Of a DNA stretch of 64,000 bases, positions 11,522 to 35,682 are shown in pieces; position 1 is the stretch's first letter, and each line of letters opens with the position of its first letter. This DNA comes from Bacteroidota bacterium (GTDB lineage Bacteria > Bacteroidota > Ignavibacteria > UBA10030 > UBA8401): positions 121,190 through 185,189 of the forward strand of contig JAUXTU010000015.1 of assembly GCA_030679145.1 (NCBI GenBank). Reading direction: 5' to 3'. Below the pieces are notes generated by a model. It had not been told where the DNA came from. It searched no databases and saw only the letters and a program-made list of their open reading frames with translations. Made by a program: the position numbers and the translations under genes.

Positions 11522-11803
11522 TGTATAACTTCCTTCCTGATAACGTGTGTTTCAAATTTGGAATACAATAATACAAAAAAAGGGGGATGAAGTCAACGAA
11601 AAACTCTATGGTCGTTATACGGCAAATTGACAATTCTGTGTGGTGGTTTGGTTACACAGGAACACTAGTGCAAAAATATTCCAGACGATCTTTTAAAATA
11701 AAAGCAAGATTCAACACAAGGACATAATGATAATAAAATTGCAGGTAAATCATACGGTGCTTTGGTCGATAAAATTTCCTCTAAAAATTGTAGTAAATAG
11801 TGC

Positions 11804-11832
11804 TTGACAAAAAGAATAATATATCTTAATTT
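11804..11832 (+). promoter_or_regulatory. candidate sigma-70-type promoter for the Rrf2 gene
   Basis: TTGACA (11804-11809), a 17-nt spacer, then TAATTT. It sits ~25 nt upstream of the ATG at 11854. Confidence 0.3.
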
Positions 11833-11853
11833 CAGAGTAAAATATCCGAAACT

Positions 11854-12270
11854 ATGAGCGTTCTTTTTAGCCGTCCCTGTGAATATGCGTTACAAGCAGT
11901 GTTATATCTTGCTCAAAAACGAGAAGGAGAAATGACATCTGCCAAGGAATTAACTTCAAAATTAGATATTCCGTATCATTTTATTTCTAAAATTTTACAG
12001 GATCTTACGTATAAAAAACTTTTATATTCGCAAACAGGTCCTACAGGAGGCTTTGCGCTTGCAAAGTCGCCCAAAAAAATTTTATTTCTTGATATTGTTG
12101 AAGCTATTGATGGGAAAGATTATAAAACAAATTGTGTTATGGGATTTTCTGAATGCGGAGGAGAGAAAGTCTGCGCAGTTCATGATAAATGGAAACTTAT
12201 CAAAGAAAATATCCACAACATGTTGGTAAGCAAAAACATATTCGAAATGGCGAAAGAAATGAATCGTTAG
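11854..12270 (+). CDS. Rrf2 family Fe-S transcriptional regulator (NsrR/IscR-like)
   Basis: N-terminal wHTH of the Rrf2 family. C-x6-C-x5-C cluster-ligand motif (CVMGFSECGGEKVC). It lies at the head of the nos locus. Confidence 0.7.
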   Translation: MSVLFSRPCEYALQAVLYLAQKREGEMTSAKELTSKLDIPYHFISKILQDLTYKKLLYSQTGPTGGFALAKSPKKILFLDIVEAIDGKDYKTNCVMGFSECGGEKVCAVHDKWKLIKENIHNMLVSKNIFEMAKEMNR

Positions 12271-12370
12271 TAATAGAAAGGTTATTTGTCAAAAATTTTT
12301 ATTCGACGAACTATTAGTAATACACAATTTTGCATATCATAATTTTGGAGTAAATATTCTGAAATTAAAT

Positions 12371-12384
12371 AGAATTATAATTCT
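12371..12384. promoter_or_regulatory. perfect 14-bp palindrome AGAATTATAATTCT immediately upstream of the DUF2249 start codon
   Basis: Read directly from the sequence. It is self-complementary. Confidence 0.3.
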
Positions 12385-12387
12385 GTA

Positions 12388-12624
12388 ATGAATAATCTCC
12401 AATCAAAAACAATAGATGTCCGAAACATTCATCCTTCTCAAAGACATTCTTTAATATTTGAGATGTTTGATGCACTTGCCGGTGGAGAATCAATTGAACT
12501 TGTGAATGATCACGAGCCACGCCCGCTCTATTATACTTTTTTACATGAGCGAACAGATAAATTTCAATGGGAATATCTGGAATCTGGTCCAACTGTTTGG
12601 AGAGTTCGGATTAGAAAACATTGA
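12388..12624 (+). CDS. DUF2249 domain protein
   Basis: 78 aa. This family is typically associated with denitrification and NO-response loci. Confidence 0.55.
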   Translation: MNNLQSKTIDVRNIHPSQRHSLIFEMFDALAGGESIELVNDHEPRPLYYTFLHERTDKFQWEYLESGPTVWRVRIRKH

Positions 12625-12809
12625 AAACAATAAAATAATTGAATTTTTCAAAATTTAAAAAACCGTAACGAGATGTCACAAGCAATAAAAACCTTTCAAA
12701 AACGCCGCTAAAGGTATGAATAGGTTTATCAAAGCTGAAAAAATATTCTTCAATATTTATTATTGGGAATTAAAACCTACAAACAATGCGGAAATTCTTC
12801 AAAATTAAA

Positions 12810-12827
12810 TCAGATTAGTTAATCTGA
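12810..12827. promoter_or_regulatory. candidate operator: 8-bp perfect inverted repeat TCAGATTA-GT-TAATCTGA ~40 nt upstream of the flavoprotein gene
   Basis: Read directly from the sequence. Confidence 0.35.
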
Positions 12828-12866
12828 AATAGGCATAATTTTTGCAGAGTTTATGGAAAAAACTGT

Positions 12867-14768
12867 ATGACCGACAAATACCCTCTAAAAGTTCCTGATA
12901 TAGAATTTTGGAAGAATCTCGTTCCCTGTCAAATCGGTTGCCCGATTCATACTGATGCCGGACGTTATGTGCAGCAAATTGGCGAAGGGAAGTATAAGGA
13001 AGCATATCTCACCGCGCGGTCTCCAAATCCATTCGCAAGCGTTTGCGGACGCGTCTGTGCGGCTCCGTGTGAAGACTGGTGCCGCCGTGGAAAAATCGAT
13101 GCGCCCGTTTCCATTCGAGCTTTAAAACGTTTTGTAACTGATAAATTTGGAATAGAATCTCTTGAGCCGGATACGGTCAATGCACTATTGAATGGTGAAT
13201 CCGATGCAGGAAATAAATGGCGATGGCATCTTCCGATACAAAATGAAAAAAGAAAAAATATTGTTAAAAACAAGAATGTAGCAGTTATCGGTTCCGGTCC
13301 AACGGGTGTTTCGTGTGCACACGATCTTGCATTAATGGGTTACACCGTAACAATTTTTGAAGCAACCTCGGTTGGCGGAGGAATGCTTCGCCACGGAATT
13401 CCTGAGTATCGTCTTCCCCGCACCTTAATAGATAAAGAAATTGACAAAGTAAAATCCTTAGGCGTTACGATACAATACAACACTCCACTTACTGAAAAAT
13501 TTGGACTGAAAGAATTAAAGAAACAAGGGTACGATTCGGTCTTCATTTCTGTTGGCACACAGAAGGGGCGGGATATTAATATTGAAGGATCAAATCTGGA
13601 TGGTGTTGTAAAAGCGATTGATTATCTACTCAACATCAACAACGGATATCGTGTCAATCTTGGTAAAAAAGTGTTGGTGATTGGAGGCGGTTTTGTGGCA
13701 TTCGATGCAGCACGATCGGCGTTACGTGCAACATCCGAATCTGATACAACTATACACGAAGCGGTTGATGCGGCGCGTGTTGCACGACGATCCGGTGCAG
13801 AAGAAGTACATATTGCAAGTTTAGAATCATTTGCAGAAATGCCCGTACTACGTTCCGTGCAAGGATATGAAGAATTTGAAGAAGCCAAACGTGAGGGTGT
13901 TGTGTTTCATCCTCAGCGCGGTCCCAAAAAATTCATCGGGGAAAATGGAAAATTGAAAAGAGTTGAATTTATCGGTGTGAAAAAAACATATGATGAGAAT
14001 GGAAAATTCAACCCTGTATTTGATGAATCACTGACAGAACGTTTTGATGTCGACACGGTGATCCTTGCAATCGGTCAAAAAACTGATCTTTCGTTCATTG
14101 TCGCTTCCGATAAGGTTGAAATATCTCCAGGCGGATTTCTAAAGATCAATACTGAAACACTTGAAACCACAGCTCCTGGAATTTTTGCAGGGGGAGATGC
14201 AGCGTTCGGTCCCAGAAATATCATTGAATCTGTTGCTAACGGAAAGAAAGCAGCTCTTTCTATCGATGAATTTTTGAGCGGGACAACTGCAACAACGTAT
14301 TTCGATCTCTCTATCGAAAAAATTCCCACCAGCAGATTCACCCGTCCAGAAGATTTTGAACAATACACCCGTGAAGCTCCGCCGACAATAGATTTAAATC
14401 GTCGGACAGGGATATCAGAAGTAGAAATTGGCTACACGGAAGAACAGGCGAAGCGACAGGCTGAACGATGTCTATCATGTCATGTACAAACAATTTATGA
14501 TGCAGATAAATGCGTGATGTGTAACCGTTGCGTGGATGTTTGTCCTGAATACTGTTTGAAGCTTGTTCCGTTGAACGAATTGGAAATTGATACAGCAATT
14601 AAAGCACAATTGGTTGAACACTATAATATCGATCCATATTCACCCGCCAGTGCAATGATCAAAGATGATGAAACATGTATTCGATGCGGATTATGTGCTC
14701 TGCGATGTCCGACCGATGCGATGACAATGGAGGTCTTCTATTATGAAGAACATGAACAATTCAAATAG
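12867..14768 (+). CDS. GltD-like NAD(P)H-dependent Fe-S flavoprotein oxidoreductase with C-terminal 2x[4Fe-4S] ferredoxin domain
   Basis: N-terminal Cys cluster as in glutamate synthase small subunit (CQIGCP, CGRVCAAPCEDWC). Two dinucleotide-binding GxGxxG motifs (VIGSGPTG, VIGGGFVAFDAA). C-terminal CxxCxxCxxxCP x2 (CVMCNRCVDVCP, CIRCGLCALRCP). Confidence 0.7.
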   Translation: MTDKYPLKVPDIEFWKNLVPCQIGCPIHTDAGRYVQQIGEGKYKEAYLTARSPNPFASVCGRVCAAPCEDWCRRGKIDAPVSIRALKRFVTDKFGIESLEPDTVNALLNGESDAGNKWRWHLPIQNEKRKNIVKNKNVAVIGSGPTGVSCAHDLALMGYTVTIFEATSVGGGMLRHGIPEYRLPRTLIDKEIDKVKSLGVTIQYNTPLTEKFGLKELKKQGYDSVFISVGTQKGRDINIEGSNLDGVVKAIDYLLNINNGYRVNLGKKVLVIGGGFVAFDAARSALRATSESDTTIHEAVDAARVARRSGAEEVHIASLESFAEMPVLRSVQGYEEFEEAKREGVVFHPQRGPKKFIGENGKLKRVEFIGVKKTYDENGKFNPVFDESLTERFDVDTVILAIGQKTDLSFIVASDKVEISPGGFLKINTETLETTAPGIFAGGDAAFGPRNIIESVANGKKAALSIDEFLSGTTATTYFDLSIEKIPTSRFTRPEDFEQYTREAPPTIDLNRRTGISEVEIGYTEEQAKRQAERCLSCHVQTIYDADKCVMCNRCVDVCPEYCLKLVPLNELEIDTAIKAQLVEHYNIDPYSPASAMIKDDETCIRCGLCALRCPTDAMTMEVFYYEEHEQFK

Positions 14769-29984: not shown

Positions 29985-30581
29985 TTAATGATGTTTCATT
30001 GCTCCGTGTAATTTATGCCGTAAAAACATCCGTGATCGCCGCAGACGCGATTTGACCGCTGGAATGGAAAGCTTCAATATCTTCGCTGTCTCTTCTGCCG
30101 TTCTATTCTCAAGATCGCGCAGAACAAAGACCACTTTATATTCTTCCGGTAATTCCTGAATTGCATCGTCCATTGTTTTGCGCAATTCTTTGTTCATTAA
30201 TGTTTCGATTGGTGAATCATCCCACGACTGCAATTGTTTCTGCACTGCTTCATCGTTCACATCCGGCGCATCATCGAGCGACTCGAGCAGTCCGTCTAAT
30301 TTCCGTTTCCGGCGGTTCATTAAACAATTGTTGGCGACAATGGTATAGAGCCACGTTGAGAACTTCGAACGAGAATCGAACTGATCGATCTTGCGATAAA
30401 CATTGATGAACGTATCCTGAAACGATTCTTCCGCTTTATCCTTATTCCTGCACAGTTTGAATGCAAAACCATACACCGTCTGCTCGTACTGCTTCACCAA
30501 TTGCGCAAATGCGCGTTCATCACCCTGTTTTACTTTGGCGATAAGATGGTGTTCGGTCTGCGTGTCGAGAGTGTTGGTCAT
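29985..30581 (-). CDS. ECF (sigma-70 family) RNA polymerase sigma factor. The start is taken at MTNTLDTQ; the track ORF starts at 30698.
   Basis: Region 2 (FINVYRKIDQFD..FSTWLYTIVAN) and region 4 (EYKVVFVLRDLENRTAEETAKIL) are present. Confidence 0.75.
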   Translation of the reverse strand: MTNTLDTQTEHHLIAKVKQGDERAFAQLVKQYEQTVYGFAFKLCRNKDKAEESFQDTFINVYRKIDQFDSRSKFSTWLYTIVANNCLMNRRKRKLDGLLESLDDAPDVNDEAVQKQLQSWDDSPIETLMNKELRKTMDDAIQELPEEYKVVFVLRDLENRTAEETAKILKLSIPAVKSRLRRSRMFLRHKLHGAMKHH

Positions 30582-30774
30582 TGATATGATGCAGTGAAAC
30601 GAAAAAAAGATGCTTTTGCTTTCAAAGAATAAAGAAAAATGGGTGCGGATGCAAGAAGAGATAAATAGATTACTTCGCAGCGAAGACGTTGGGAACAAGA
30701 TGAAAACTCAAAACCTAACTCACAGGTGCGTTGACAGTTTACACCTCAGAAGTTGAGTAGATGGGTGGCGCTTA

Positions 30775-31527
30775 TCATTCATAGAGATAACGCCTTTCAT
30801 TTAAGACACCTAAACAATAATCAATACCGAAAAGTATTTGTTCGGTTTCATCTTTTGATGATTCAACTTCTTCAACCGTGGGTCTGTATCCATATTTGTG
30901 AATGATTCTATTTCGCAATATATTCACTTGAGTATTTTTCAAACGCAATATTAAATCACTCAATTTATTATCCTCAATACTTTTTATTGCTTCATTTGTT
31001 GGTTCCGACGAATATAACTTCAAATCCAATATTATAGAATTACTTTGCTCAAGGCCATTACTCTTAATTTTGTTCGTAATAAAATTAATAAATGTATTCC
31101 TAAGGAGATAAAATGGCCATTTACGTGTACTTTCAAAAAGTAAATCTGATATTTTATTTAGAAGGTTTTCATTGTAAGATTTTTCAATCCCAAAAGGTTT
31201 ATAAAGCAATTCAACTCTAAGAAATAACGCAAAATACATCTCAAACGATTGTGTTAAATTTAGTATACAATAAGAATATTGCTTCCGTTGTTTTAACACC
31301 TCACAATCTAAAATTAACATTTGCCACGCTGGATTAATTAAATCTTTTTCAATCAGAAATTTAAAATTACAACTACTACTTTGACAGACAACTATTTTCT
31401 CAATGAGAAGTTTAAAGTTTTTAATATCAGATGCACGATTATATATATTCCAATATGAACAATAGGGACAACGCGCCTCAACATTTTCATATGTTGATCT
31501 TGTTTCAGTTGATTTTTTAATTACCAT
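30775..31527 (-). CDS. hypothetical protein with N-terminal Cys4 zinc-ribbon and C-terminal HEPN-like RNxxxHxY motif, located in an AT-rich island
   Basis: CPYCSYW...CQSSSCNF near the N-terminus. LRNRIIHKYGY sits ~50 aa from the C-terminus (nt ~30887-30916). GC is ~30 %. Confidence 0.35.
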   Translation of the reverse strand: MVIKKSTETRSTYENVEARCPYCSYWNIYNRASDIKNFKLLIEKIVVCQSSSCNFKFLIEKDLINPAWQMLILDCEVLKQRKQYSYCILNLTQSFEMYFALFLRVELLYKPFGIEKSYNENLLNKISDLLFESTRKWPFYLLRNTFINFITNKIKSNGLEQSNSIILDLKLYSSEPTNEAIKSIEDNKLSDLILRLKNTQVNILRNRIIHKYGYRPTVEEVESSKDETEQILFGIDYCLGVLNERRYLYE

Positions 31528-31556
31528 ATTGAATTATTATTTTATGAAAAGTTAAT

Positions 31557-32630
31557 CTAGGGTTCTGTTACAACCCGAAAACCGGTAGCAACCTCTCTAC
31601 TTCCAGGACTGTAACCGGCTCGATGTGCAACCCTATGATTAGTATTGTACCCATAATACCAAGAACCACCTCTAACAATACGGTAAATTCCGATTGGAGA
31701 AAGCCATGCACTTCCATCGGTTGGTGCTCCATCATAGTCGCTGTGATAGAAATCTTCACACCATTCCCACACATTACCACTCATGTCGTGAATTCCAAGT
31801 TCATTTCCTGTTTTTGTTGCTACCGGATGTGGGGAATAAAGCTCTATGTAGTTATAATACCATGAAACAGAATCTATGTTGTCACTACCACTATATATAT
31901 AATGAGGTTTATGTGCTTTTATACCACCTTGAGCAGCAAACTCCCATTCTGCTTCGGTTGGAAGTCGAACAATTTTTCCAGTTTTTAAACTCGCCCAAGC
32001 GCAAAACTCTTTTGCATCAAACCAGTTTACATTTATAGCAGGCATTGAAGTTCGGCCCCAACCACCATCATTAGGTTTCGATCGAAATGTTTCTCTGCAA
32101 AATTGGTCATATAGGTCAAATGTTACTTCCGTTTTACAAATTTTAAATGATTTAACGGTCACTTTATGTTGAGGATATTCCTCAAACAACCCTGTACCAT
32201 TTTCACTACCCATATCAAATGTTCCACCATCAGCCACAATCCACTCTACGAGTAATTCAGGAAATCTTGAAATCAATGAAAATTGAATTTGAGATGACTT
32301 TGCAAAATTATTATTAATGTCATACGCTATAACGGATAGCGTATGTGAGTATGAATTAGAATACTTCTTATAGAGTATATAATATTTATATGGATATTGA
32401 TTTAATACCGTATCAATTTTATTATCTACATATATTTCTATTTTATCGATTCCTCTATCATCTTTTGCCGATATTTCAATAAAAATTGAATCTGCCTCAT
32501 TTGTGTTATCCGCAGGTAAAATAATTTTCACTTCTGGGGATATTGTGTTGTTTTCTGTAGGGCTATTTCTTTTGCAAGAAATGATATTTGATAAAACAAA
32601 CAGAATAATGATTGGTATAATAATTTTCAT
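31557..32630 (-). CDS. FGE-sulfatase family lipoprotein
   Basis: Lipobox LSNIISCK. N-terminal Ig-like region. FGE-fold motifs (INVNWFDAKEFCAW, LPTEAEWEFA, RGGSWYY, GFRVV). Confidence 0.65.
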   Translation of the reverse strand: MKIIIPIIILFVLSNIISCKRNSPTENNTISPEVKIILPADNTNEADSIFIEISAKDDRGIDKIEIYVDNKIDTVLNQYPYKYYILYKKYSNSYSHTLSVIAYDINNNFAKSSQIQFSLISRFPELLVEWIVADGGTFDMGSENGTGLFEEYPQHKVTVKSFKICKTEVTFDLYDQFCRETFRSKPNDGGWGRTSMPAINVNWFDAKEFCAWASLKTGKIVRLPTEAEWEFAAQGGIKAHKPHYIYSGSDNIDSVSWYYNYIELYSPHPVATKTGNELGIHDMSGNVWEWCEDFYHSDYDGAPTDGSAWLSPIGIYRIVRGGSWYYGYNTNHRVAHRAGYSPGSREVATGFRVVTEP

Positions 32631-32657
32631 TTTTTTACTTTAACTAATATTTTATTT

Positions 32658-32975
32658 TTATTTTCGAACACCGTAACAAGCTACTGTTGGTCTAGTTAAA
32701 CCAACAACTAAAGTGGAATATTTTCCATTATCACCTTGATTGATAAAGTACTCTTTATAGTCTACGCCGATGACAAGTTTTATTTGTGAATATTTATTTC
32801 TATCAGCACTTAATGTTACCTTAACCGACCAGTATGAATTTAAAGTATTTTGATATTTTCCTACATATTCAGCAGAGACTGAAGTTGGATTTAATAATTC
32901 TTCCTTGCCGCTTTCAGATTCATTTGGATCTGAGCAGCCAACTAATAATAAAATAAAGGATAGTAGTAATTTCAC
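32658..32975 (-). CDS. small lipoprotein, unknown function
   Basis: Lipobox LLVGCS. 105 aa. AT-rich. Confidence 0.4.
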   Translation of the reverse strand: MKLLLSFILLLVGCSDPNESESGKEELLNPTSVSAEYVGKYQNTLNSYWSVKVTLSADRNKYSQIKLVIGVDYKEYFINQGDNGKYSTLVVGLTRPTVACYGVRK

Positions 32976-33285
32976 TTCAATCTCCGATATGGATAGTCGC
33001 CTAATCTATGATTAGTTTGCTTATCAAAAAAACCTGAAATCATTATTCTACTAATGTATCATAAAAATTGTGATGAACAATCCTATCTTCAAGTATGTGT
33101 TAATTTTTGCCTTAATATTAACAAAGTTTGAATAGAGCGCAACATCCTGATATGGCAATCTCTTTTTGATTTTCAATCAAACAAGGTTGTTATTTGCACA
33201 CTGCAACAATTCACTCAAAAAAACGTTTTTTAAGAGTGTTTTTCCTTTGCTTGCACTTCATGTAATTTAAGCTGAAATTTCATCT

Positions 33286-34326
33286 ATGAATCGTCGGGCT
33301 GTATTAAAAAAATTAATCGTTACACCGCTTATGCTACCATCGTTATCGCTCTTTTCACAAGAACGATCCGGGCTGCCGTCACATCATGGCGAGAACGGAT
33401 TCATCAATACCGATCCTGAATTTGCTGAAGCGGGATTCAATGAAATGGCTCCTTGGCTTGCAGGTAAACTCGGCGATATTTTTTATAGCACTCCGAAATT
33501 CGATATCCCCAGAGAAGTGAACGACGGTTCGATCTTCAAAGAAAAAAAAACATACACTATAACATGGATCGGTCAGTCAACCGCATTGATCCAAATGGAA
33601 GGATCGAATTTTCTGACCGACCCTGTTTGGTCATCCAAAGCAGGTCCGTTCAAATTTGCAGGTTCGCCGCGCATTTCTGAACCCGGACTTGCAATAGAAA
33701 AACTTCCTCCGCTCGATTTTGTTCTCATCTCGCACAATCATTACGACCATCTTGATGAATACAGTATTGAATATATTGCTGATCATCATCCGAATGTAAA
33801 ATTCTTTGTTCCGCTCCGTGTCCGCGATTGGTTTGAAGAGCGGGGAATTCAGAATGTTGAAGAGCTGGATTGGTGGGAAGGGGCATCATTCAATAATTTA
33901 AAAATTCTCTGCACACCGGCGCAGCATTTTTCCGGCAGGTGGATCAATGACCGAAATCAATCGTTGTGGTGTTCGTGGACAGTGCTTGGGAAAAAGAGAT
34001 TATTTTTTGCGGGGGATTCTGGATATTGTTCACATTTCAAAAATATCGGAAAAAAATTCGGTCCGTTCGATCTTGCAATGATCCCCATCGGCGCATACGA
34101 TCCGAGAAAATTGATGAAGCCCGTGCATATGGATCCTGCGGAAGCAGTGCAGACATTTTTAGATGTGCGCGGAAAAAAAATGCTTGCCATTCACTGGGGA
34201 ACATTTATTCTGACCGATGAGCCGATGGATGAACCGCCAAAAAAATTATTGAGTGTGGTTGAAGAACAGAAGCTTTTGAAAGAAGATTTTTTGGCTCTGA
34301 AACTTGGTGAAACGAGAGAGTGGTAA
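33286..34326 (+). CDS. metallo-beta-lactamase-fold hydrolase (NAPE-PLD-like) with signal peptide
   Basis: HxHxDH motif (SHNHYDHLD). Signal sequence with RR. Additional metal-ligand His/Asp residues. Confidence 0.65.
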   Translation: MNRRAVLKKLIVTPLMLPSLSLFSQERSGLPSHHGENGFINTDPEFAEAGFNEMAPWLAGKLGDIFYSTPKFDIPREVNDGSIFKEKKTYTITWIGQSTALIQMEGSNFLTDPVWSSKAGPFKFAGSPRISEPGLAIEKLPPLDFVLISHNHYDHLDEYSIEYIADHHPNVKFFVPLRVRDWFEERGIQNVEELDWWEGASFNNLKILCTPAQHFSGRWINDRNQSLWCSWTVLGKKRLFFAGDSGYCSHFKNIGKKFGPFDLAMIPIGAYDPRKLMKPVHMDPAEAVQTFLDVRGKKMLAIHWGTFILTDEPMDEPPKKLLSVVEEQKLLKEDFLALKLGETREW

Positions 34327-34378
34327 GCAAAGATTTATTTATTCTTCATCAGTTTAATTATCTGCATCTTTAAGCGTA

Positions 34379-34447
34379 TCGTCATTCCCGCACGTTTTTT
34401 GCGGGGATCTATTCTGTGGATGCCCGATAAGAACATTCGGGCATGAC
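34379..34447. repeat. palindromic intergenic repeat, GTCATTCCCG family, copy C (near-identical to copy B)
   Basis: TCGTCATTCCCGCACGTTTTTTGCGGGGATCTAT, plus TGGATGCCCGATAAGAACATTCGGGCATGAC. Confidence 0.65.
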
Positions 34448-34464
34448 AAAAATTTGTCGCCCCG

Positions 34465-34860
34465 TTATTTTGGATGATGAAATTTTGCCGCCGCAACAGA
34501 CACCGCACCGATCAACGATCCATATATTCCACCGATGAATGGACTTGAAATAAGTAAAAACCATTGCGGCGAAAGTGTTTTGGTAAAAATCTCTAATTCC
34601 GAAGCAGCGTGAGGATTGTGTTGTACGTAGAGTGAAAAGAACGCAATCTGAACAATTGTATTCGATAGTCCCATTCCAATACCCGCCAGAATCCCGTGAA
34701 GAAAAATCTTATGTGTTGTTGTTCGTGCAATGAAAACAGCCGTGACCAAAGCGATGACGATCCACAAGAGTAATTCAAAGTTCTGTGTATAGCCGAACAG
34801 GGAAGCTGTTCCCATCAAAATGCCGAACATCGAAAAAAAATATATATTAAGCCACTTCAA
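34465..34860 (-). CDS. hypothetical integral membrane protein
   Basis: 131 aa with 4 predicted TM helices. Confidence 0.4.
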   Translation of the reverse strand: MKWLNIYFFSMFGILMGTASLFGYTQNFELLLWIVIALVTAVFIARTTTHKIFLHGILAGIGMGLSNTIVQIAFFSLYVQHNPHAASELEIFTKTLSPQWFLLISSPFIGGIYGSLIGAVSVAAAKFHHPK

Positions 34861-35229
34861 TGGTTGTTTACCTTAGATTGTTGCAGTGAAAATACAAACT
34901 CTATGTGCTAACATCAATAATGTTTTAAGACTCAATGCTTAAAGAAAGTTCAGAAGTAATGAGTCAATTGAACGTGAAGGCATTCCTAAACCACCGGACT
35001 TGTATCTTACTAAGAGTTACAATATATTTAACACCTGTTTTTTTGAATTACTCAGATCTTAGTTGTATAAGTTAATGGTAAAAAATTCCACTTATCGGAG
35101 AAAAATACCGAGTTCTTACATTTTATCTGATTTTTTTTGTGAAAATATAACGGTTATAATTTGGCATAGTCTATGCCCTAGATATATAGTTAACCATCAT
35201 TTCAAAAAAACTATTAAAGAGTAAAAACA

Positions 35230-35682
35230 ATGGGTCAACAACAATTGTTGCTCCTCATTCTTGGTGCAATTATCATTGGTATTGCCGTCGTAGTCGGTAT
35301 CACAATATTCCAAGATAATGCTATTAGCTCAAACAAAGATGCTGTAATAAATGATTTGATCCAGTTATCGGCAAAAGCACAAGAGCATTATCGTAGAACA
35401 TCATCAACGGGTGGTGGTGGATATACCTATTCAGGAATTGATTCTGTTGGTTCGCTCGTTTCAAACGAATTTTCGAATAACGATAAAGGGAGATATTTTA
35501 TCATACCTATTAGTGCAAATCAAATTCTTCTTGCAGGGTACAGTAAATATCAAAATGCTGATGGTACATATCCCGCAATTGGAATGCTTGTAACTCCCAC
35601 CGAAAGTATAATAGGACCATGGATTAACACAGCAACAGCAATACCAACCTCTAATGCAGAAATAGACATACCAACTCCGTAA
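35230..35682 (+). CDS. hypothetical protein with N-terminal hydrophobic anchor
   Basis: 150 aa. N-terminal LLLLILGAIIIGIAVVVGITIF. No recognisable domain. Confidence 0.3.
   Translation: MGQQQLLLLILGAIIIGIAVVVGITIFQDNAISSNKDAVINDLIQLSAKAQEHYRRTSSTGGGGYTYSGIDSVGSLVSNEFSNNDKGRYFIIPISANQILLAGYSKYQNADGTYPAIGMLVTPTESIIGPWINTATAIPTSNAEIDIPTP

Follow-up and report, generated by a model that had tools for sequence, protein, structure and literature searches.

A zinc-ribbon and HEPN-domain protein, putatively a stand-alone ribonuclease, encoded in an AT-rich insert of a Bacteroidota genome

HEPN ribonucleases (RNases), whose superfamily corresponds to Pfam clan CL0291, have been defined by an Rx4H motif that ends helix 3 of the fold, a polar residue after the arginine, a helix 2 that contains an acidic residue, and, often, an insert that sets helix 2 apart from helix 3 (Anantharaman et al. 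2013, PMC3710099). HEPN domains fused to zinc ribbons were catalogued in 2013, namely Npun_R5629 of the Abi2/Swt1 group, some proteins of the DUF4145 family (PF13643), and EC042_2821, which is found in restriction-modification (R-M) operons (PMC3710099). Single-gene defence by HEPN proteins is also already established, and HepS provides a precedent in which sensing and execution reside in one solitary HEPN protein (PMC13043305). Here, we describe a gene for a zinc-ribbon and HEPN-domain protein of 250 amino acids (aa) in a 64,000-nucleotide stretch of DNA, hereafter called the window, from a Bacteroidota bacterium (GTDB lineage Bacteria; Bacteroidota; Ignavibacteria; UBA10030; UBA8401; assembly GCA_030679145.1, contig JAUXTU010000015.1, positions 121,190 to 185,189 of the forward strand). 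The gene occupies positions 30775-31527 of the window on the minus strand and is labelled 'hypothetical protein' at NCBI (Q8L88_02135); two lipoprotein genes lie upstream of it. We favour, with some reserve, the interpretation that its product is a cytoplasmic, stand-alone zinc-ribbon and HEPN protein that acts as a latent RNase of the abortive infection (Abi) type, with the two lipoproteins as passengers.

The N-terminal part of the 250-aa protein contains the cysteine pattern C20-x2-C23 ... C48-x4-C53, and the sequence L204-RNRIIHKYGY-214 is found near its C-terminus. These motifs and the three open reading frames (ORFs) of the locus had been noticed in an earlier reading of the DNA made without database searches (hereafter, the sequence-only reading), and all are present as it described them. 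The structure of a single chain was predicted with AlphaFold2 from a 41-sequence family alignment. The model has a predicted local distance difference test score (pLDDT) of 92.5 and a predicted template modelling score (pTM) of 0.88. It consists of a zinc ribbon made of beta strands (residues 9-58 with C20, C23, C48, and C53; 31354-31503, minus strand) and an all-helical domain (residues 67-239; 30811-31329, minus strand). In the latter, helix 1 (67-80) and helix 2 (84-114) are followed by a helical insert (115-186), a kinked helix 3 (187-209), and helix 4 (218-239). The model thereby displays the topology of the HEPN superfamily, i.e. a four-helix up-down bundle in which an insert separates the second helix from the third, as the sequence-only reading had anticipated.

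Conservation was quantified in 131 diverse representatives of the family (alignment A2), which are 24-46% identical to the window protein. The predicted catalytic motif R205-N-R-I-I-H210 (30898-30915, minus strand) is nearly invariant, with R205 present in all 131 relatives and N206 and H210 in 130 each, so that the arginine and histidine on which the sequence-only reading had relied are indeed conserved. In the model, the motif is located where helix 3 finishes at residue 209 and a loop (210-217) begins, and N206 provides the polar residue directly after the arginine. Glutamate 96, which lies within helix 2 and is the predicted auxiliary active-site acid (codon at 31240-31242, minus strand), is found in 131 of 131 relatives. 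C48 and C53 are likewise present in every relative, C20 and C23 in all non-gapped sequences except one, and E14, N30, R31, D34, D62, K82, and Y84 are conserved in more than 90%. A tyrosine two positions after the histidine (position 212) occurs in only 13 of the 131, glutamate, arginine, histidine, and aspartate being roughly equally frequent there; the conserved tyrosine is the one four positions after the histidine. The conserved motif positions agree with the published HEPN definition (PMC3710099), and the fold-evidence matches also include LsoA, AbiA, Csm6, Csx1, HepT, and HepS.

The homolog search retrieved 47 proteins of about 250-280 aa, all of them unnamed and without Pfam domains, from metagenome-assembled genomes (MAGs) of Melioribacteraceae, Acidoferrales, Chloroflexi, and Nitrososphaera and from many metagenomes. 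A profile search of 1.84 billion representatives yielded 427 clusters at 50% identity, nearly all with one architecture and a length of 240-280 aa. The RiboL-PSP-HEPN family (PF18735) was matched by 14 of the 131 relatives, DUF4145 by four, and the HEPN family by three. One relative (P0166) passed the PF18735 gathering cutoff over residues 77-226 (29.1 bits versus 28.4), and the same protein is related to the window protein with an E-value of 5e-35. Judged from these sequence matches, the family can be placed near PF18735, at the edge of RiboL-PSP-HEPN, within the section of the HEPN superfamily that is related to AbiD/AbiF. Because the predicted fold, the motif conservation, and this transitive Pfam link converge, the identification as zinc ribbon plus HEPN, already made by the sequence-only reading, is borne out, and membership in the HEPN superfamily with an apparently intact catalytic signature is well supported.

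The zinc ribbon produced sub-threshold matches to Lar_restr_allev (45 of 131 relatives), zf-DNA_Pol (41 of 131), and Zn_ribbon_SprT (18 of 131). Against the restriction-alleviation protein Lar (PF14354), the best E-values were 3e-4 for the 41 members of alignment A1 and 6e-4 for the 131 members of A2, both below threshold. Zinc ribbons readily cross-match each other.

Next, the genomic contexts of homologs were surveyed. Eleven homologs were looked up individually, a metagenome scan added 80 loci, flanking ORFs were clustered for 91 loci, and the locus census covered 97 loci with 561 kb. Among the 11 look-ups, four homologs form part of type I R-M operons, with hsdS on one side and hsdR on the other (loci L006, L007, L009, and L094), one has the toxin-antitoxin genes PemK and ParE/RelB on its two sides (L001), one belongs to an element resembling an integrative and conjugative element (ICE) with genes for a resolvase, RadC, PIN, a TraG-like ATPase, and a DNA methylase (L003-5), one has PIN and DrmE_C nearby (L010), and four were unremarkable. 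The R-M cassette has the gene order hsdM-hsdS-(zinc-ribbon-HEPN)-SLFN_AlbA_2/HATPase_c_4-hsdR-YgjP and is found in different MAGs, including a Chloroflexi one (L006:2914-11719, L009:2670-11448, L007:2518-12549, and L094:2759-11482). L007 and L094 retain only a stump of the SLFN gene, 57-63 aa long, and have PIN genes with antitoxin-like partners, in part PhdYeFM, ahead of hsdR; in L009, the operon adjoins genes of the cyclic-oligonucleotide-based antiphage signalling system (CBASS) type, with SMODS and HORMA. The four R-M-embedded homologs form a single clade with 67-89% mutual identity, and the SLFN proteins of L006 and L009 are 85% identical. Therefore, the four associations may be copies of one mobile cassette and not independent events.

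A conserved partner gene was not detected. An all-versus-all BLASTP comparison of the flanking ORFs of 91 loci gave no cluster that was represented in more than four loci. In a Pfam census of 149 immediate neighbours, N6_Mtase (4) and ResIII (3) ranked at the top, followed by other R-M parts, and no family exceeded four. A nucleotidyltransferase was found neither among the neighbours listed for the 11 homologs nor among the families seen at least twice in the 149 flanking ORFs. The window copy likewise has no adjacent MNT gene, as the sequence-only reading had noted, its neighbours encoding a lipoprotein and an extracytoplasmic function (ECF) sigma factor. In 44 of 52 loci, the GC content of the homolog gene is below that of its flanks. 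As these surveys showed no recurring partner, we conclude that the family is a solitary, often transferred chromosomal gene without an obligate partner that leans to defence and mobile regions; the solitary HEPN that the sequence-only reading had offered as one option is thus what the homolog loci show. The R-M, toxin-antitoxin, and ICE-like settings of homologs also make its suggestion of a defence or toxin role plausible.

A mechanism can be outlined on the basis of established HEPN biochemistry (PMC3710099) and of the HepS precedent (PMC13043305). The protein would oligomerise in such a way that two R-N-x3-H motifs face each other and form a composite site. RNA, be it tRNA, rRNA, or mRNA, would be cleaved at this site in a metal-independent reaction that leaves 2',3'-cyclic phosphate ends. 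The protein would be kept latent and be switched on by a phage-derived cue, and the conserved zinc ribbon with its conserved polar residues would be the likely sensor or, alternatively, an RNA-binding module. The outcome would be abortive infection or growth arrest brought about by a single gene, and the two lipoproteins would stay outside this mechanism as passengers of the same insert.

Several observations weigh against the interpretation as a latent HEPN RNase. Direct scans of Pfam, NCBIfam, PADLOC, and PHROGs with the 250-aa protein returned no family match, the only hits being noise (CdiA_C with E 0.07, and SigM with 20 bits versus a cutoff of 148). The window protein itself does not match PF18735 even at E<=10 and reaches no Pfam threshold, so that profile searches, which the sequence-only reading had recommended for HEPN and Abi families, fail directly, a passing score being reached only by the relative P0166. 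Searches of PDB sequences with phmmer and with the family profile gave zinc-finger noise only. Foldseek comparisons with PDB and BFVD gave no significant match and none with E < 0.1; the sole notable row was the HEPN protein 2q00 with a probability of 0.96 but an E-value of 0.5. E96 lacks the typical Ex3[KR] arrangement, residue 100 being alanine. Relatives were found neither in plasmid and phage collections by tblastn nor in IMG/VR by a pattern scan. Lastly, the window copy and several homologs (L008, L095, and L097) are surrounded by housekeeping genes, without defence neighbours.

The last observation would also be expected if the family were a housekeeping or regulatory protein with a HEPN fold that binds or processes RNA and has no role in conflicts, because these copies lie among ordinary metabolic genes. 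Some HEPN domains are indeed non-catalytic binders (PMC3710099). However, the strict conservation of the arginine, asparagine, histidine, and glutamate argues for catalysis, the distribution across phyla (Bacteroidota, Acidoferrales, Chloroflexi, and Nitrososphaera MAGs) is patchy, and the GC content is foreign in most loci, with the gene missing from the closest syntenic relative. We regard this explanation as unlikely, albeit as the best surviving of the alternatives.

Alternatively, the protein could be the toxin of an addiction module that stabilises mobile DNA instead of defending against phages, with an unrecognised antitoxin in the form of a small RNA, a tiny ORF, or its own zinc ribbon acting in cis. 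No neighbouring ORF recurs, however: none of the neighbour clusters in the 91 loci exceeded four loci, the Pfam census concurs, and no MNT was seen. In the window, just 29 nt lie upstream of the HEPN gene before the next gene, and neither an Rfam match, to an antitoxin RNA or a riboswitch, nor meaningful tandem repeats hint at an RNA antitoxin. An addiction module is, therefore, quite unlikely in our view.

The R-M cassettes raise the further possibility that the protein is an accessory guard of type I R-M systems in the manner of PrrC and RloC, which would be silenced by the R-M complex and freed once a phage has put restriction out of action, with the window copy as a decoupled or orphaned descendant. 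The exact position of four homologs between hsdS and hsdR, usually together with the SLFN_AlbA_2/HATPase_c_4 gene, would fit, as would the weakly Lar-like ribbon in 45 of 131 members and the rank of R-M genes as the commonest neighbours. But the association is restricted to one clade and perhaps to one mobile cassette, the window contains no R-M genes, most homologs are not beside R-M genes either, an ABC-ATPase domain as in PrrC and RloC is missing, and the Lar-like matches are sub-threshold and typical of cross-matching between zinc ribbons. We consider a guard function improbable.

A more far-reaching proposal would combine this idea with the preferred reading as a stand-alone latent RNase. 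The family might be a compact, ATPase-less counterpart of PrrC/RloC, in which the Lar-like ribbon would monitor the integrity of type I R-M complexes, or directly sense an anti-restriction or structural protein of the phage, and would then release an anticodon-type RNase, with the stand-alone copies being self-contained like HepS. We hold this to be speculative and quite unlikely, on a par with the addiction module. If true, it would amount to a single-gene defence system that is new and widespread among uncultivated bacteria and archaea of soil and sediment.

In the window, the HEPN gene belongs to a block of three co-directional genes on the minus strand that are separated by spacers of 29 and 27 nt. 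The second gene (31557-32630) encodes a lipoprotein of 357 aa with a lipobox signal peptide, a Big_7 Ig domain, and a domain of the FGE-sulfatase fold, FGE being the formylglycine-generating enzyme. The third gene (32658-32975; NCBI Q8L88_02145) starts with GTG and encodes a lipoprotein of 105 aa with the lipobox LVGC. All three proteins match NCBI proteins of a MAG ('Bacteroidota bacterium') at 100%, and for the 250-aa and 105-aa genes the NCBI boundaries are identical.

The composition of the block differs from that of the window, which has a GC content of 41.4% with a standard deviation (sd) of 3.3 points in 750-bp windows. Only 1.3% of the 750-bp windows have a GC content of 30% or lower, and almost all of these fall within the block. 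The region 30775-33285 has 31.6% GC and the HEPN gene 28.3%. The GC content at third codon positions (GC3) is 0.215 for the HEPN gene, 0.240 for the FGE-fold gene, and 0.198 for the small lipoprotein gene, whereas 47 other ORFs of the window have 0.394±0.047; the block genes are about 3-4 sd lower, a departure well beyond chance. The FGE domain on its own has 40.5% GC, yet its GC3 is only 0.255. These values bear out the sharply AT-rich island of the sequence-only reading, with two corrections: the flanks have 40-46% GC instead of 45-58%, and the low-GC stretch does not end at 33000 but reaches about 33285. Its upper part (32976-33285, 30% GC, intergenic) leads to the divergent gene of an MBL-fold hydrolase and is presumed to comprise the promoter region and the upper end of the insert. 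A promoter scan detected one sigma-70-like match (33074-33045, minus strand), a frequency no higher than chance. Past the HEPN stop codon and before the ECF sigma gene, a terminator scan found a weak terminator-like hairpin (30673-30685, minus strand); because 1.3 such sites are expected by chance in the region and one was found, it is only suggestive. The mechanically called ORF of the ECF sigma factor (29985-30698, minus strand) begins with TTG and is over-extended, as its ortholog in a related genome (L011) has 195 aa. The true start is probably the ATG at 30584, in which case about 190 nt would separate the HEPN stop codon from the sigma gene.

The 357-aa protein has the lipobox IISC and matches Big_7 (E 6e-9) and FGE-sulfatase (PF03781, E 1.2e-51, residues 129-354). 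Among solved structures, PvdO (3.7e-23) and the Treponema denticola variable protein 1 are its best relatives, and its nearest database relatives are 46-54% identical, in the FGE domain alone. The formylglycine-generating enzyme depends on a catalytic pair of copper-binding cysteines. In an alignment to the enzyme of T. curvata (6s07), this pair is absent from the 357-aa protein: 'LCHESYC' is aligned with '--YYGYN', with the first cysteine falling into a deletion and the second standing opposite an asparagine. With both catalytic cysteines missing, an active formylglycine-generating enzyme was rejected; the 'FGE-family' label of the sequence-only reading is therefore valid for the fold and not for the enzymatic activity, and the protein is probably a surface binding protein. 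The 105-aa lipoprotein has no family match, and a search of 5.8 billion clusters retrieved no protein other than itself; from its sequence, it is an NCBI-annotated candidate gene and an ORFan.

The comparative data essentially exclude that the HEPN protein and the two lipoproteins make up one module of three genes for defence or toxicity. In favour of such a module are the shared strand, the 27-29 nt spacers, the common foreign GC3, the Ig-repeat Fib_succ_major lipoprotein gene that the closest homolog (P0002, 59% identical) also follows, and the occasional fusion of FGE domains to TIR or kinase domains elsewhere. These points are outweighed by the absence of any relative of either lipoprotein from the 97 homolog loci (561 kb), the lack of sequence similarity between the 357-aa protein and the lipoprotein upstream of P0002, the ORFan status of the 105-aa lipoprotein, and the export of both lipoproteins, in contrast to a HEPN protein that lacks a signal peptide. 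The new pairing with the FGE-fold lipoprotein that the sequence-only reading had entertained accordingly falls away, and, as far as their sequences indicate, both lipoproteins are exported neighbours in the same insert and are not supported as functional partners of the HEPN protein. At the locus of the closest homolog (L091), the gene lies between a 695-aa Ig-repeat/Fib_succ_major lipoprotein gene (L091:679-2766) and an AAA_14/DUF4143 ATPase gene (L091:3996-5183), which is followed by a Phd antitoxin gene. The idea that this lipoprotein and the 357-aa protein are homologous partners was dropped for want of sequence similarity, and we ascribe the upstream position of a lipoprotein gene at both loci to coincidence, the lineage being rich in lipoproteins.

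Of the relatives available, L011 (MAG283) is the closest, and its proteins share about 67-88% identity with their counterparts in the window. Its gene order is OsmC, rhodanese, thioredoxin, YgaP, anti-sigma, ECF sigma, 620 bp, and MBL-fold hydrolase. None of the three block genes was found in L011 by tblastn, and its 620-bp slot encodes a membrane ORF of 124 aa with ordinary GC content. Because all three genes are missing from the same slot in a syntenic genome, the block is a lineage-specific insert. The foreign GC3 together with the absence from L011 supports the horizontal acquisition of the whole block, an AT-rich segment of about 2.5 kb, as the sequence-only reading had proposed. At the block borders, neither an integrase nor flanking direct or inverted repeats beyond short chance-level matches were found, and the window contains no tRNA genes.

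The surroundings of the block are also variable. In L011, about 6.5 kb (L011:9041-15600) separate the MBL-fold hydrolase gene from a gene for a 131-aa membrane protein, whereas the two genes are adjacent in the window (34326-34465), and thus the MBL gene is flanked by indel hot spots on both sides. A second low-GC patch (34801-35551) overlaps an ORF for 150 aa (35230-35682, plus strand) whose hydrophobic N-terminus resembles that of pilins and whose GC3 is 0.25. This ORF has no Pfam match and no counterpart in L011, and the patch may be a further small insert. A third low-GC stretch (11551-13001, about 31%) is mainly intergenic with small ORFs, extends from ribosomal-protein-like genes to the large ORF 12867-14768, and has no matches to Rfam families.

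The family comprises about 430 clusters at 50% identity over several phyla; its members carry no annotation beyond 'hypothetical protein', and Pfam, NCBIfam, PADLOC, and PHROGs all overlook it. With its recognition, a further candidate for an effector of defence or toxicity that consists of a single gene becomes known, and a gap in the tools that search for defence systems is exposed. The hsdS-hsdR clade offers the concrete hypothesis that some members serve R-M systems as back-up nucleases. In the present genome, the gene marks a small insert that was acquired recently and occupies a variable slot beside an ECF sigma operon. What is new is a specific, sizeable, and unannotated family, the zinc-ribbon-HEPN proteins known from 2013, e.g. 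Npun_R5629, having been compared by description only. It is not a new principle or a new kind of system, because descriptions of HEPN RNases, of their fusion to zinc ribbons, and of their placement in R-M operons were already available in 2013 (PMC3710099).

Among the known systems, the type II/VII toxin-antitoxin pair HepT/MNT (DUF86 with a nucleotidyltransferase), to which the sequence-only reading had likened the C-terminal motif, differs in several respects. The window protein is about twice as large as HepT, carries the extra ribbon, and has no MNT neighbour, and the tyrosine that is AMPylated in HepT is not conserved. The specific Rx4HxY match did not hold up in the family, and with PF18735, not DUF86, as the nearest Pfam family, membership in HepT was rejected. 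HepS, the single-protein Abi system of prophage Gifsy-1 (PMC13043305), is prophage-borne and lacks a zinc ribbon, whereas the window family was not found in phage collections and has no detectable sequence similarity to HepS. With PrrC and RloC, the family shares a HEPN domain as effector and, in one clade of homologs, the same position between hsdS and hsdR; unlike them, the window protein has no ABC-ATPase domain and its gene has no R-M neighbours. RiboL-PSP-HEPN (PF18735) is the nearest family by sequence and has in common the R-N-x3-H motif, in which the arginine is followed by a polar residue, and an intact site. However, a fusion to endoRNase L-PSP is missing, the recurrent neighbours include neither ParB nor L-PSP, and the window family has a conserved N-terminal four-cysteine ribbon of its own with the conserved residues E14, N30, R31, D34, and D62. 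DUF4145 was matched only weakly, with a best E-value of 0.005 among the four relatives concerned. Compared by description only, the zinc-ribbon-HEPN proteins catalogued in 2013 have the same two-module architecture and the same tendency to occur in R-M operons as the family described here.

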